Positions 50,731 to 59,338 of a DNA stretch of 64,000 bases are shown here, piece by piece. Origin of the DNA: a virus (taxonomy: Duplodnaviria; Caudoviricetes); IMG/VR virus record IMGVR_UViG_3300027754_000035. One strand, given 5' to 3'. The translations under genes were made by a program, and so were the position numbers. The notes beneath the pieces were generated by a model, which searched no databases, had not been told where the DNA came from, and worked only from the letters and a program-made list of their open reading frames with translations. Position 1 is the first letter of the stretch. The number at the start of each line of letters is the position of its first letter.

Positions 50731-51233
50731 ATAACAATACCATCACCAGATCCGCCATTCATTTGTACGCACACGCACTGCGACAAAACCGAGCCACAAT
50801 TATAGATGAATATACCCACCTTCTCGAAACTGAGTTGGGTAGAATGTTTCCTGCTCTTAAAGAAAAGAGTGAGGATGGAGTCCAAGATTGGGCATGTGAT
50901 ATACTCAATTGTGATTCCAAACAAGAAGTTGATGCCACACTGGATCGCATCAACGATATATTGACGCAACAAGCCAAAAATGGATGGGTGTGTGCGTTTT
51001 GTGGCAAAAATACATACGACATGGACTCAGATTATCTTTTTGGTACAAATCACATTAATTGCGCTTTGGAAGAAGATATCAAGAACAGAGCACATTCAGA
51101 TCCTGATTATGTTCTTGATCCTCGCCGCAGAAAACTCTGTGAATTGGAAAAACAAATCGCAGAGTTGCAGAATACTCTGAATAATATCAAAGCCGAACAT
51201 CACGAACCATATCATCACGAACCAACAAATTAA
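50727..51233 (+). CDS. Hypothetical protein with CxxC...HxxC zinc finger
   Basis: WVCAFCGK...HINC; ATGA overlap. Confidence 0.6.
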   Translation: MNNNTITRSAIHLYAHALRQNRATIIDEYTHLLETELGRMFPALKEKSEDGVQDWACDILNCDSKQEVDATLDRINDILTQQAKNGWVCAFCGKNTYDMDSDYLFGTNHINCALEEDIKNRAHSDPDYVLDPRRRKLCELEKQIAELQNTLNNIKAEHHEPYHHEPTN

Positions 51234-51598
51234 TGTTGCACATGCTCGGCAAACACAAACCGTTTCGTGCTGCATTACATAAGCGTAATGATCCCAAATC
51301 TAGGAAAGTCGTCAAAGAATATCTCAAAAAAACGATGTATTATTGTTATATTCTAAAATGTAGTGATAATACGCTATATTGCGGCTATACTAACAATATA
51401 GAAAAGCGTGTTTGTGTACATAATTCTGGTAAAGGTGCCAAATATACACAAAAAAGATTGCCGGTTCAATTGGTATATAATGAAGAATTTTTGACCAAAT
51501 CTGACGCAATGAAGCGGGAATATCAGATTAAACAACTGACCCGAGAACAAAAGATACAGTTGATAAAAAATGGACACAATACCAAATCTACCAATTAA
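51233..51598 (+). CDS. GIY-YIG nuclease (UPF0213-like); true start may be ATG 51335
   Basis: YCYILKCSD.TLYCGYTNN.EKR...HNSGKGAKYT..RLPV.LVY.E...SDA.KREYQIKQL. Confidence 0.9.
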   Translation: MLHMLGKHKPFRAALHKRNDPKSRKVVKEYLKKTMYYCYILKCSDNTLYCGYTNNIEKRVCVHNSGKGAKYTQKRLPVQLVYNEEFLTKSDAMKREYQIKQLTREQKIQLIKNGHNTKSTN

Positions 51599-52175: not shown

Positions 52176-52193
52176 TGCCCTCTATTTATAGGC

Positions 52194-54641: not shown

Positions 54642-54673
54642 TAAACAACTGATACCAAATACTATTTATTGAT

Positions 54674-57600
54674 ATGGCTAAAATGGATTATAACAGTCTT
54701 TTGAACAAGCAAAACTTTGTTGCTTGGATGTTGAGTATTGCGAGTGATGATCCAAATCCAACAATTAGACAGGCAGCCAAAGAAATTGGGTACGAAGCAA
54801 ATGGCAACAGTATTATTGGTCCAAAGCCTTATTACAATGCTTTGTATCTGAAATACAAATTCAAAGTTGCGCCAATTCAAACCGATAATGGTATACAAAC
54901 ACAACTGTTTGAATTGGTCGGAATAAATTATAGATCGGTAGGTATTATACGTACACCCACCATTATAAAGACTTTTGTTGCACCAGCACCTACACCATCA
55001 AGTTCGACTCCAGATCCTTCAGTAACACCGACAACCTCGCTAGATGTGTCAGCTACTCCAAGCGTCACAGTCACTCCAAGCGTCACAGTCACTCCAAGCA
55101 CTACAGCTACTCCAAACGCAACTGGCAGTGGTACTCCAGGTTCCAGTGTGACACCAACACCAAGCATCACAGCTACTCCAAGCATTACAGCCACACCAAG
55201 CTCGACAGCCACACCAAGCATCACAGCTACACCTAGCTTAACAGCAACTCCAAGCTTAACAGCAACACCTAGTGAAACTGCTACACCAAGCTTGACTGCA
55301 ACTCCAAGTGAAACAGCAACTCCAAGCTTGACAGCAACACCAAGTGAAACAGCAACAGCAAGCTTGACTGCAACTCCTAGCTTGACTGCAACTCCTAGCT
55401 TGACTGCAACTCCAAGCTTAACAGCAACTCCAAGCTTGACTGCAACTCCAAGCTTGACTGCAACACCAAGCTTGACTGCTACACCTAGTGAAACAGCAAC
55501 TCCAAGTGAAACAACAACAGCAAGCTTGACTGCTACACCAAGTGAAACAGTAACTCCAAGCTTGACTGCAACACCAAGCTTGACTGCTACACCTAGTGTG
55601 ACTGCTACACCTAGTGTGACTGCAACTCCAAGCTTGACTGCTACACCAAGCTTAACAGCAACTCCAAGTGAAACAGCAACTCCAAGCTTGACTGCTACTC
55701 CAAGTGAAACAGCAACTCCAAGCTTGACAGCAACTCCAAGCTTGACTGCTACACCAAGCTCGACAGTCACTCCAAGCTTGACACCAACTCCAAGCATTAC
55801 AGCTACACCAAGCATCACAGCCACACCAAGCATCACAGCTACACCAAGCACTACAGTCACACCAAGCTCGACAGCGACGCCAAGCTCGACAGTCACTCCA
55901 AGTCCAACTGTAACAGCAGTACCAGATTGGGGTCCAGTGTTCTTTGGTGGAGCGGCTTATGGCACAAACAGTACATCATTTGTTAAATCCTCCGGCACCG
56001 AAGGCTGGAACAGCAAAGTTTATTCCACTGTAGGTTACATAGACGGAGTGTCGGTTACGGCGCAATGTAATACTACTACTAATGCAGACGTGATGTTTGG
56101 TCTTAGTGTTGATCCAGCATCAACAGCACACGTTGATAATGAATATGTAAATCTTGATTATGCGTGGTGCTTCCTTGGCGGCACGTTGCAAATTTTTGAA
56201 AGCGGTGAGAATGCGTACAGCTACGGTGCTTATACCGCCAGCACAGTTCTTAACATTACTTATGATGGTACAAATGTAAAATACTACAAAGATGGTACAT
56301 TAGCTAGAACTGTGCAACGTGACGATCTACGTTTAACACCACTGTATTTCAGCACTGCTTTCCACTATATCAATACAAGCATTGCATTAACAAATGTGGC
56401 GTTTGTTTCAGCACCCGGTGTGACACCAACACCAACACCCAGCGTCACCGCAACAGCAACAGCAACACCAACACCAAGTTTAACAGCAACTCCAACAGTT
56501 ACTCCAACAATCTCAGTTACACCAAGTGTGACACCAAGCTTAACAGCAACACCAAGTGTAACAGCAACAATCTCAGTCACACCAAGCTTAACAGCAACCC
56601 CAAGTGTAACAGCAACAACCTCAGTTACACCAAGCTCAACAGCAACACCAAGCTCAACACCAGACCCAAGCTTAACAGCAACACCTAGTGTGACAGCAAC
56701 ACCTAGTGTGACTGCTACACCTAGTGTGACTATTACTCCAAGCTCGACAGTCACTCCAAGCTTGACACCAACAGTATCAGTTACTCCAAGCTTGACACCA
56801 ACAGCATCAGTTACTCCAAGCTTAACAGCAACAGCATCAGTTACTCCAAGCTTAACAGCAACACCAAGCTCAACACCAGAACCAAGCTTAACAGCAACAC
56901 CAAGCTTGACAGCTACGCCGAGCTTGACACCAAGTCCAACTGTGACAGCGGTACCAGATTGGGGTCCAGTGTTCTTTGGTGGAGCGGCTTATGGCACAAA
57001 CAGTACATCGTTTACTAAAACCAGCGGAACGAATGGTTGGAACAGCAAAGTTTATTCAACGTTGGCTTACACAGGTGGAGCGTCGGTTACGGCGCAAACG
57101 AATACCACTGCTGGTATCTCGATGTTTGGTCTTAGTGTTGATCCAGCATCAACAGCACATGTCAACAGTGAATATGCTAATATTGATTATGGATGGTACC
57201 TCGAGCCCGCCGGCGGCGATGGTCTGTACATTTGGGAAAGCGGTGTGTACGTGGGTAGCTTCGGTGCTTATACAGTCAACACAATTCTTAATGTTATTTA
57301 TGATGGTGCTAATGTAAGATATTACAAAGACGGTGTATTAGCTAGAACTGTGCAACGTGACGATCTAAGGTCAACACCACTGTATTTCATTGCTACTTCC
57401 TATTATGTGGACGCAACCAGAGCAATAACAGATGTGACGTTTGTTTCAGCACCAAGTGTGACACCAACACCAACACCCAGCGTCACCGCAACAGCAACAG
57501 CAACACCAACACCAAGCGTCACAGCCACACCAAGCGTCACAGCCACACCAAGCTTGACACCAACTCCAAGCACTACAGCCACACCAAGCACTACAGTCAC

Positions 57601-59338
57601 ACCGAGCGTCACAGCCACACCAAGCACTACAGTCACACCAAGCGTCACAGCCACACCAAGCTTGACACCAACCCCAAGTCCAACTGTGACAGCGGTACCA
57701 AGTTGGGGACCAGTGTTCTTTGGTGGGGCCGCTTATGGTGCAAATAGTACATCATTTACTAAATCCTCCGGCACCGAAGGCTGGAACAGCAAAGTTTATT
57801 CCACTGTGGCTTACACAGGTGGAGTATCAATCACAGCACAAGCTACTGGAACCTATACTACGTTTATGTTTGGTCTTAGTGTTGATCCAGCATCAACAGC
57901 ACACGTTGATGAATATGCTAATATTGATTATGCTTGGTTCTTGCCCGGAAGCAGTGGTTACAGCGCACGAATTTATGAAAGCGGCATCGACGTTGGCGTT
58001 GACTTCGGCATTTATACATCCAGTACAGTTTTTAATGTTACGTATGATGGTGCTAATGTAAGATATTACAAAGATGGTGTATTAGCTAGAACTGTGCTAC
58101 GTGACGATCTAAGGTCAACACCACTGTATTTCATATTCACGCCTTATCATATCAATACAAGCATTGCATTAACAGATGTGGCATTTGTTTCAGTACCAAG
58201 TGTGACACCAACACCAACAGTTACACCTAGTGTGACTGCAACTCCAAGCTTGACACCAACAGTTACTCCAAGCTCAACAGCAACTCCAAGCTTGACACCA
58301 ACAGCATCAGTCACACCAAGCTTGACGGCCACACCAAGCTTAACAGCAACTCCAAGTGAAACAGCAACTCCAAGCTTGACTGCTACTCCAAGTGAAACAG
58401 CAACTCCAAGTGAAACAGCAACAGCAAGCTTGACTGCTACACCTAGCTTGACTGCAACACCAACAGTATCAGTTACTCCAAGCTTGACACCAACAGCATC
58501 AGTTACACCTAGTGTGACACCAACAAAGACAGTTACACCTAGCTTGACACCAACACCTCCAGCACCAAGTGTGACACCAACAAAGACAGTTACACCTAGC
58601 TTGACACCAACAAAGACTGCAACTCCAACAGTTACACCAACCCCAAGTCCAACTGTGACAGCGGTACCAAGTTGGGGACCAGTGTTCTTTGGTGGTGCTG
58701 CTTATGGTACAAACAGCACATCGTTTGCTAAACCCAGCGGCACCCAGGGCAGCAACAGCAAAGTTTATTCCACGGTGGCTTACACAGGCGGAGCATCAAC
58801 CACAGCACAACTTGCTGGCGTACTCGGCGCGGCCTTTGGTCTTAGTGTCAATCCAGCATCAACAGCACACGTTAACCTTGAATATGCTAATATGGATTAT
58901 GGTTGGTACTGCAACGGCACCTACGCGGGCGGGATGTTGATGATGGAAAGTGGCAACAACCAAGGTGGCGTTACTTGGACAGCCGGCGCTGTTTTTAACA
59001 TTACTTATGATGGTGCCAACGTAAGATACTACAAAGACGGTGTATTACAAAGAACTGTGCTACGTACCGATCTACGCTCAACACCATTGTATTTCATGTG
59101 TACTTCATATGGAGTTGACGCAACCAATTTACAAACGGATGTGGCATTTGTATCGATACCAAGTGTGACACCAACTCCAACAGTTACTCCAAGCATCACG
59201 GCAACACCTAGTGTGACACCAACAAAGACAGCCACACCTAGTGTGACACCAACAAAGACAGCTACTCCAAGCTTGACACCAACAGTCACTCCAAGCTTGA
59301 CACCAACACCAAGTGTGACGCCAACACCAGGTATTTGA
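54674..59338 (+). CDS. Mucin-like adhesin: N-terminal anchor plus four ConA/SPRY-like beta-sandwich domains separated by Thr/Pro/Ser stalks
   Basis: Four ~165-aa repeats (WGPVFFGG...GWNSKVYS...FGLS...DYxW...[11 protein letters not shown]...LYF) at about 55919, 56951, 57695 and 58664. Confidence 0.78.

Follow-up and report, generated by a model that had tools for sequence, protein, structure and literature searches.

The stretch of DNA analysed here, 64,000 nucleotides of a Caudoviricetes virus (Duplodnaviria; IMG/VR record IMGVR_UViG_3300027754_000035; hereafter the window), encodes a fibre-like protein, P0001, that carries four lectin-like heads with hypervariable loops. In P0001, a known kind of phage binding module is arranged in a new way, and a modest and reproducible codon anomaly accompanies it: the loops contain an excess of codons ending in C. 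The reading that we favour, with a probability of about 0.6, is that P0001 is a late-expressed, virion-associated fibre or adhesin of a large freshwater phage, whose head frameworks have been converted among copies, whose loops are old alleles that were shuffled and not rewritten by a diversity-generating retroelement (DGR), and whose C-ending codons are a compositional legacy.

P0001 comprises 1554 amino acids and consists of an N-terminal anchor domain, stalks rich in Thr, Pro and Ser, the four heads (D1 to D4) and a short Thr/Pro/Ser tail. The heads, of about 168 residues each, share 62-72% amino-acid identity, and their mean DNA column identity is 84%. The variation among them is centred on four segments, L1, L2 (located after the DYxW motif), L3 and L4, with an additional semi-variable patch at residues 23-33. 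L2 measures 10, 13, 13 and 13 codons in D1 to D4, and L3 9, 9, 10 and 8 codons. A first-pass annotation, made from the DNA letters without database searches, had described four lectin-like domains with hypervariable loops on a conserved framework, and both parts of this description were confirmed by the alignment and by the structural model presented below.

An AlphaFold2 model of D2 built with a 124-sequence alignment, which replaced a four-sequence model with a predicted local distance difference test score (pLDDT) of 65, reached a pLDDT of 95.3 and a predicted template modelling score of 0.91, and adopts a two-sheet β-sandwich. Foldseek searches of the PDB with this model gave template modelling (TM) scores of 0.6-0.67 with E-values of 1e-6 to 1e-5, the best matches being TRIM B30.2/PRY-SPRY domains, Emp46/47, an archaeal legume-lectin domain (7elv) and CBM66. 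The ConA/SPRY fold that had been suggested for checking was thereby recovered, at TM 0.62-0.67 for the SPRY/ConA-like structures. Phage SPRY clusters of the Atlas matched the model at TM 0.70-0.73, and a structural protein of Cellulophaga phage phi13:1 at TM 0.86. By their predicted fold, the heads belong to the SPRY/ConA-like lectin superfamily.

At the sequence level, hmmscan against Pfam-A (E ≤ 1) returned no lectin or SPRY family (PF00622, PF13385) for D1 or D2. The profile hidden Markov model of phrog_19691, annotated as a virion structural protein, matched D1 (E 1.3e-16) and D2 (E 1.2e-19) over profile positions 129-265 of 623, and structural proteins of Cellulophaga phages are homologues at 35% identity. 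A profile search of 1.84 billion protein representatives recovered 1975 relatives (as clusters at 50% identity), often giant multi-copy proteins, and members of the family co-occur with Phage-tail_3/Rcc01698_C, PB4_spike and SprB-type modules. The family as a whole spans phage tail proteins and giant surface proteins of Bacteroidota, Myxococcota and others, and has no Pfam model. Lectin domains of the ConA-fold SPRY and Laminin-G3 types have already been reported from the tail fibres of jumbo phages (PMC7824862). The heads of P0001 would most likely bind glycans or other host-surface ligands.

On the D2 model, the variable segments correspond to the β3-β4 loop (residues 23-33), the β5-β6 loop (L1), the β7-β8 hairpin together with β9 (L2 and L3), residues 109-111 and the β13-β14 loop (L4). 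Successive loops of a sandwich point to alternate ends, and strand parity in the DSSP string therefore predicts that residues 25-33, L1, the tip of L2, residues 109-111 and L4 lie at one and the same end of the structure.

The divergence of the loops was compared with that of the frameworks at two depths. Among the four paralogues, framework four-fold degenerate sites differ at 0.12-0.31, loop codon positions 1 and 2 at 0.50-0.66 and loop third positions at 0.37-0.55; the history of the loops, silent sites included, accordingly reaches much further back than that of the frameworks. Fourteen further close copies of the head were found on ten short freshwater metagenome contigs, likewise on Thr/Pro/Ser stalks. 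In the orthologue-like copies, loop positions 1 and 2 diverge by 0.04-0.36, about equal to the 0.04-0.28 of framework four-fold synonymous sites, the differences are distributed almost evenly over the three codon positions (67/61/68), and 57 of the 125 differing loop codons carry multi-nucleotide differences. The L2 and L3 loops of D3 are identical on a contig from another sample (L006) despite several framework differences. In a comparison of samples based on assembled contigs, in which rare variants stay hidden and in which gaps in cover and repeat-driven stalk joints were given no weight, the contigs of runs X2 and X4 showed no differences in the loops of D2 to D4, while those of X5 and X8 were diverged variants. 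More distant variant strains differ by all types of substitution.

The relationships among copies are also mosaic. The nearest neighbour shifts block by block, the residue 23-33 patch of D1 and the fw4 framework block of D2 both being closest to D3; within L2, D2 and its orthologue are set apart by a local patch, and the L2 loops of relatives reach 19 codons. Because the loops of the paralogues are deeply diverged and nearest neighbours change in blocks, we favour a homogenisation of the frameworks that spared the loops: the frameworks would be kept alike by gene conversion among tandem copies and related phages, and the loops would be ancient alleles, strongly diverged, that have been retained and reshuffled while under diversifying selection.

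In a 469-bp contig of run X4, from another sample, positions 56889-57120 (first half of D2) run directly into positions 56092-56328 (second half of D1), the junction lying in conserved framework. The contig represents either a true recombinant head or a chimera that arose during assembly through more than 31 nt of identical sequence.

The codon anomaly was quantified in the four blocks that span L2 and L3, where the first-pass annotation had counted 51 C-ending codons out of 109, a count that we reproduced exactly. Its figure of 3-4 C-ending codons out of 30 for the adjacent YDG..LYF framework holds for D1, D2 and D3 (4, 4 and 3), and D4 has 8. When the expectation was derived from the codon usage of the 49 other open reading frames (ORFs) of the window, conditioned on the amino acids used, L2 and L3 together contained 43 C-ending codons against 19.6 expected (z 6.2; 1.9-3.7 for single domains), which bears out the proposed NNC bias. 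Only 0.3-3% of 26-codon windows of other genes attain the fractions of C-ending codons (C3) seen in the loops. A more conservative column-level test restricted to the four window copies gave a C3 of 0.33 in variable and 0.19 in invariant columns (Mann-Whitney p 0.012). Ordinary genes also hold single 20-codon windows of similar z; the strength of the result therefore resides in its recurrence across independently diverged loops.

This recurrence was observed in all 18 copies, the hypervariable columns having a C3 of 0.27-0.48 and the conserved columns one of 0.08-0.19. The excess is moderate (C3 about 0.33-0.47), amounting to some 20-35% extra C-ending codons and not to a near-fixed NNC pattern. 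Relative to expectation, third-base C is raised 1.75-fold in hypervariable columns (z 7.9) and G 1.35-fold (z 3.0), and A and T are lowered to 0.52-fold (z -6.2) and 0.78-fold (z -3.7). The initial claim of a C-ending bias accordingly stands for L2 and L3 and requires two amendments: G-ending codons are raised too, about equally in conserved columns and hence without a link to variability (Spearman rho with variability 0.38 for C3 and 0.06 for G3), and in the four window copies no C3 excess is seen when L1 or L4 is considered by itself. What changes with variability is more C and less A at third positions. The C excess is present in most codon families, strongest for Tyr, Phe, Asp, Ser-AGY and Gly, also strong for Pro and Arg-CGN, and weak for Asn, Thr, Ala and Val.

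The anomaly does not extend to the wider family. In 50 distant homologous domains from IMG/VR phages, at 35-47% identity, C3 in the equivalent columns is 0.188 against 0.183 (p 0.84), and in 193 distant pairs it is 0.136 where the amino acids differ and 0.148 where they agree. The corresponding values for 144 pairs of the window lineage are 0.327 and 0.172, with A-ending codons falling to 0.189 from 0.301 and G-ending codons unchanged. Since the distant homologues are flat, the excess is specific to the lineage of the window. Contig L001 taken alone displays a weak excess (7/26, p 0.007). The C-ending excess is real, moderate, largely C-specific and lineage-specific.

As to its origin, our best guess is a compositional legacy: the loops would have a different, deeper or foreign history, richer in G and C at third positions (GC3), and the frameworks would have been overwritten by resident AT-ending sequence. 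The codons of the loops are used much as in a genome with some 50% GC. Across copies, the GC3 of the framework correlates with that of the loops (rho 0.61, p 0.009), which fits a compositional history at the level of the copy. Two related copies (L009 825-1380 and L010 1033-1590) carry L1 and L2 loops of far greater length, about 17 and 19 codons respectively, with a hypervariable GC3 of 0.68 in L009, which is very GC3-rich, and of 0.60 in L010; to judge by their appearance, a single insert has been caught at two points of its compositional change.

Several observations weigh against this reading. None of the 18 close copies has a GC3-rich framework that could represent the donor. The conserved codons between L2 and L3 (ATT TAT GAA AGC GGT and GGT GCT TAT) keep A/T endings, which makes the import of whole segments awkward. 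The shift is specific to C, a GC-rich donor being expected to raise third-position G as well, and codons that differ in amino acid likewise have a C3 of 0.33 against 0.17 with G unchanged. The correlation between framework and loop GC3 could reflect the different genome GC of the source phages. The one-sided position of the loops is predicted from strand parity and not from coordinates, and the search for a reverse transcriptase (RT) covered the 64-kb window, not the whole genome. Loop import from a GC-richer donor and an undescribed diversifier, the two other options of the first-pass annotation, are conceivable causes of the excess, as is codon-level selection.

The last of these is unlikely in our view. 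C endings could be favoured for accurate decoding by tRNAs with GNN anticodons, or Y endings could survive repeated replacement better, because changes at positions 1 and 2 then cannot yield stop codons or codons for K, E or Q. The concentration of the excess in Tyr, Phe, Asp, Ser-AGY and Gly, and also in Pro and Arg-CGN, the scarcity of K, E, Q, M and W in the loops, and the family-specific codon preferences of other genes, which suggest translational selection in this genome, would all agree with such selection. However, T-ending codons do not rise with variability, the shift of Pro, Ser-TCN and Arg-CGN codons to C is not explained by UNN tRNAs, conserved and structurally critical codons have no C preference, and the other lineages of the head domain are flat across the 193 pairs.

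We see a slim chance that an undescribed, lineage-specific mechanism, distinct from a classical DGR or any known cassette system, renews or replaces short loop patches with a product poor in A and rich in C at third positions. Such a mechanism would account for a shift that is both lineage- and C-specific and that acts at the scale of codons, leaving adjacent conserved codons untouched, for the frequent multi-nucleotide codon differences in the loops and for the patch-wise replacement within L2 that separates D2 from its orthologue. Set against this, the analysis brought up no candidate machinery, orthologous loops do not diverge faster than the synonymous rate, quasi-palindrome templating is at chance level, rare framework variants show no A-to-C bias, and some 20-35% of extra C-ending codons falls short of a near-fixed NNC pattern.

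The NNC pattern had led the first-pass annotation to consider a DGR, NNC codons being the footprint of adenine mutagenesis of AAC-rich templates. We give little credence to a DGR located elsewhere in the genome and acting in trans, or active in the recent past, as the source of the loop diversity and of the NNC codons, and an active classical DGR is very unlikely. The combined excess of C and depletion of A at variable codons would be expected from such an element, as would the finding that 93% of distinct hypervariable codons encode residues specifiable by NNY; codons for K, E, Q, M and W are present but rare (26 of 359 distinct hypervariable codons). In the window, all six frames and 307 ORFs were searched by tblastn and phmmer (--max) for an RT or Avd, the BPP-1 proteins Brt and Avd serving as queries, and the best E-value was 0.7, and blastn (word size 7) of each domain against the 64 kb revealed no extra copy that could serve as template repeat (best E 0.026, 24 nt). 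The search was confined to the window, which leaves room for an element farther away; 54.7 kb of the window precede the gene and 4.7 kb follow it. Phage DGR targets are nearly always located within 50 kb of the RT (PMC5758913). All ten metagenome matches are genuine domain copies and not templates. No RVT_1 match was obtained in four other phage records that carry the head domain, a weak proxy because these phages lack a homologue of the SNF2 helicase of the window and are not close relatives.

The loops themselves also speak against a DGR, whose variable regions have a fixed length, vary only at template adenines and keep their third positions fixed. L2 and L3 are of unequal length, up to 19 codons in relatives, so that a single template cannot serve all of them; when the three L2 loops of equal length are aligned, they share almost no base, so that adenine would have to make up nearly the whole of any template common to them. 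Within columns of the alignment the third positions vary, the differences are spread evenly over codon positions, and the loops diverge at about the synonymous rate between orthologues. The variable region of a DGR target usually lies at the C-terminus. In addition, DGR variable regions are systematically found in C-type-lectin folds (PMC8144416), in contrast to the SPRY/ConA-like fold predicted for the heads, and a survey of 224 jumbo phages found no target domains of the formylglycine-generating enzyme (FGE) sulfatase type (PMC7824862). The objections that the first-pass annotation had itself raised, namely unequal loop lengths, the lack of an A-only template and the absence of RT, Avd and template repeat from the window, were all borne out, and a DGR at work today finds no support in these results or in the identical D3 loops of another sample.

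That the bias is a statistical accident inflated by the shared ancestry of the copies seems the least credible explanation: comparable single windows exist in ordinary genes, the column-level test on the window alone reaches only p 0.012 and many of the 18 copies share loop classes, but the excess occurs in all of about ten independent L2 classes, 7 of the 25 top C3 windows of the whole stretch fall in the heads, which hold about 3.5% of its codons, and the negative control of distant homologues is flat.

Three further ideas were examined and rejected. A quasi-palindromic (template-switch) origin was assessed on 79 loop segments, for which reverse-complement matches averaged 9.3 nt, forward matches 9.0 nt and shuffled matches 8.8 nt; two suggestive inverted repeats connect the L2 loops of D1 and D4 with nearby framework. 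A lineage-wide A-to-C mutation bias was dismissed on the basis of rare synonymous framework variants, which are mostly transitions and include a single A>C. A fold-linked, co-translational or generic fast-evolution cause was discarded because neither the 50 distant homologues nor the 193 pairs show a C3 excess. Frame-shifted linker DNA was also considered as a source of loops, but loops and linkers have no significant similarity.

Five known systems offer points of comparison. The SPRY/B30.2 and ConA-like phage lectins (PF00622, PF13385) have the same β-sandwich fold, as modelled, and the same association with tail fibres or virions (PMC7824862); P0001 differs from them by its lack of a Pfam match, its four copies on long Thr/Pro/Ser stalks and its C-biased variable codons. 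The structural proteins of Cellulophaga phages phiST and phi13:1 (phrog_19691) are true homologues annotated as virion structural, which unlike P0001 contain a single domain in about 556-626 residues and no Thr/Pro/Ser stalks; the equivalent loops of phiST have no C3 excess (1/26). DGR targets such as BPP-1 Mtd resemble P0001 in being ligand-binding phage proteins with a conserved scaffold and hypervariable surface residues, with an excess of C-ending codons and few K, E, Q, M or W; they are C-type lectins, whereas P0001 is predicted to be SPRY-like and has loops of variable length, unfixed third positions and no hypermutation rate.

The other two lie outside DGRs. In the T-even adhesin gp38 and in mosaic tail fibres, short conserved glycine-rich motifs border hypervariable segments, which recombination swaps among related phages and which set host range; gp38 has an unrelated fold, the modules of P0001 being tandem paralogues within one protein, and we know of no codon bias in gp38. 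In TRIM5alpha, the variable recognition loops of the PRY-SPRY domain lie at one end of the sandwich and are under positive selection. It belongs to the same predicted fold family, a PRY-SPRY structure (2lm3) being among the Foldseek matches of D2; unlike P0001, it is a eukaryotic antiviral protein with a single such domain, which varies by ordinary substitution between species. By analogy, the pattern of the heads may be viewed as a phage-adhesin counterpart of the gp38 hypervariable segments and of the SPRY variable loops.

Receptor-binding modules that combine a scaffold with hypervariable loops set the host range of phages and are natural templates for binder engineering. We found no earlier description of four SPRY-like heads on mucin-like stalks, in a window that also encodes glycosylation genes. 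If derived from a mechanism, the C bias would represent a new route to targeted protein diversification; if historical, it would show that loops and frameworks of one domain can have different ancestries, a point that bears on the dating of phage adhesins and on tests of selection in them.

The coordinates of P0001 and of its surroundings are collected in Table 1.

Table 1. Features of P0001 and of its upstream paralogue (window coordinates).
Feature	Position	Strand	Remark
P0001, fibre-like ORF with four heads, SPRY/ConA-like by predicted fold	54674..59338	+	domains match phrog_19691
TATTTAT motif, putative late-promoter box	54663..54669	+	4 nt before ATG; read directly from the DNA
N-terminal domain, about 105 aa, presumed virion anchor	54674..54988	+	49% identity to N-terminus of upstream paralogue
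First Thr/Pro/Ser (TATPSL-type) stalk	54989..55915	+	
Further stalks	56417-56947, 57455-57691, 58199-58660, 59162-59335	+	
Domain D1	55916..56416	+	near-identical copy on contig L004
Domain D2, the modelled copy	56948..57454	+	orthologue-like copy L008_839
Domain D3	57692..58198	+	orthologue-like copies L006_295, L007_271
Domain D4	58661..59161	+	most divergent copy, highest framework C3
L2-L3 block of D1 (β7-β8 hairpin, β9, start of β9-β10 loop in the model)	56168..56242	+	C-ending codons 11/25
L2-L3 block of D2	57197..57280	+	C-ending codons 13/28
L2-L3 block of D3	57938..58024	+	C-ending codons 14/29
L2-L3 block of D4	58907..58987	+	C-ending codons 13/27
L1 loops, D1 to D4	56066..56095, 57098-57124, 57842-57868, 58811-58834	+	
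L4 variable stretches, D1 to D4	~56351-56380, 57389-57418, 58133-58162, 59096-59125	+	
Upstream paralogue P0002, 815 aa	52194..54641	+	same anchor domain, Thr/Pro/Ser stalk, Cys-rich C-terminal head

The window is AT-rich, with about 37-40% GC outside the locus; P0001 and P0002 reach about 46% GC, with a C-rich coding strand, an elevation that stems mainly from their Thr, Pro and Ser codons. In the stalk linkers, C occupies codon position 2 in 67% of codons and A occupies position 3 in 52%. Three alternative-frame ORFs on the plus strand (56976-57317, 57720-58061 and 58689-58940; 113, 113 and 83 aa) overlap D2, D3 and D4 over the first two-thirds of each domain. The C-ending codons most likely produce them incidentally, since C at third positions removes off-frame stop codons.

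The neighbouring genes encode glycosyltransferases, enzymes of the rhamnose and GDP-mannose pathways, a GIY-YIG endonuclease, a lysozyme and the SNF2 helicase. Positions 1-50226 contain many glycosyltransferase and nucleotide-sugar genes (Gmd, Glf, RmlA, RmlB-like and an epimerase-reductase). As these sugar-pathway genes adjoin proteins with mucin-like stalks, gene content suggests that the Thr/Pro/Ser stalks may be glycosylated. The GIY-YIG endonuclease gene (51233-51598, plus strand; Pfam E 2e-20) precedes the two stalk-and-head genes by about 600 bp. In T4-like phages, homing endonucleases of the Seg type promote local gene conversion between co-infecting genomes, and the GIY-YIG enzyme could contribute in a similar way to the mosaicism of the heads.

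The TATTTAT motif also precedes the upstream paralogue P0002, at about 52184-52190. The anchor domain of P0001 has an orthologue with 83% identity on metagenome contig L002; it has no match in Pfam, PHROG or the Atlas. The C-terminal domain of P0002 (residues ~640-815, about 175 aa) is Cys-rich and matches no Pfam or PHROG family. Contig L002 differs in this respect: a lectin-like head, not a Cys-rich one, forms the end of the gene that lies upstream of the P0001 orthologue. The heads are therefore exchangeable modules. The locus occurs in freshwater metagenomes of many studies.

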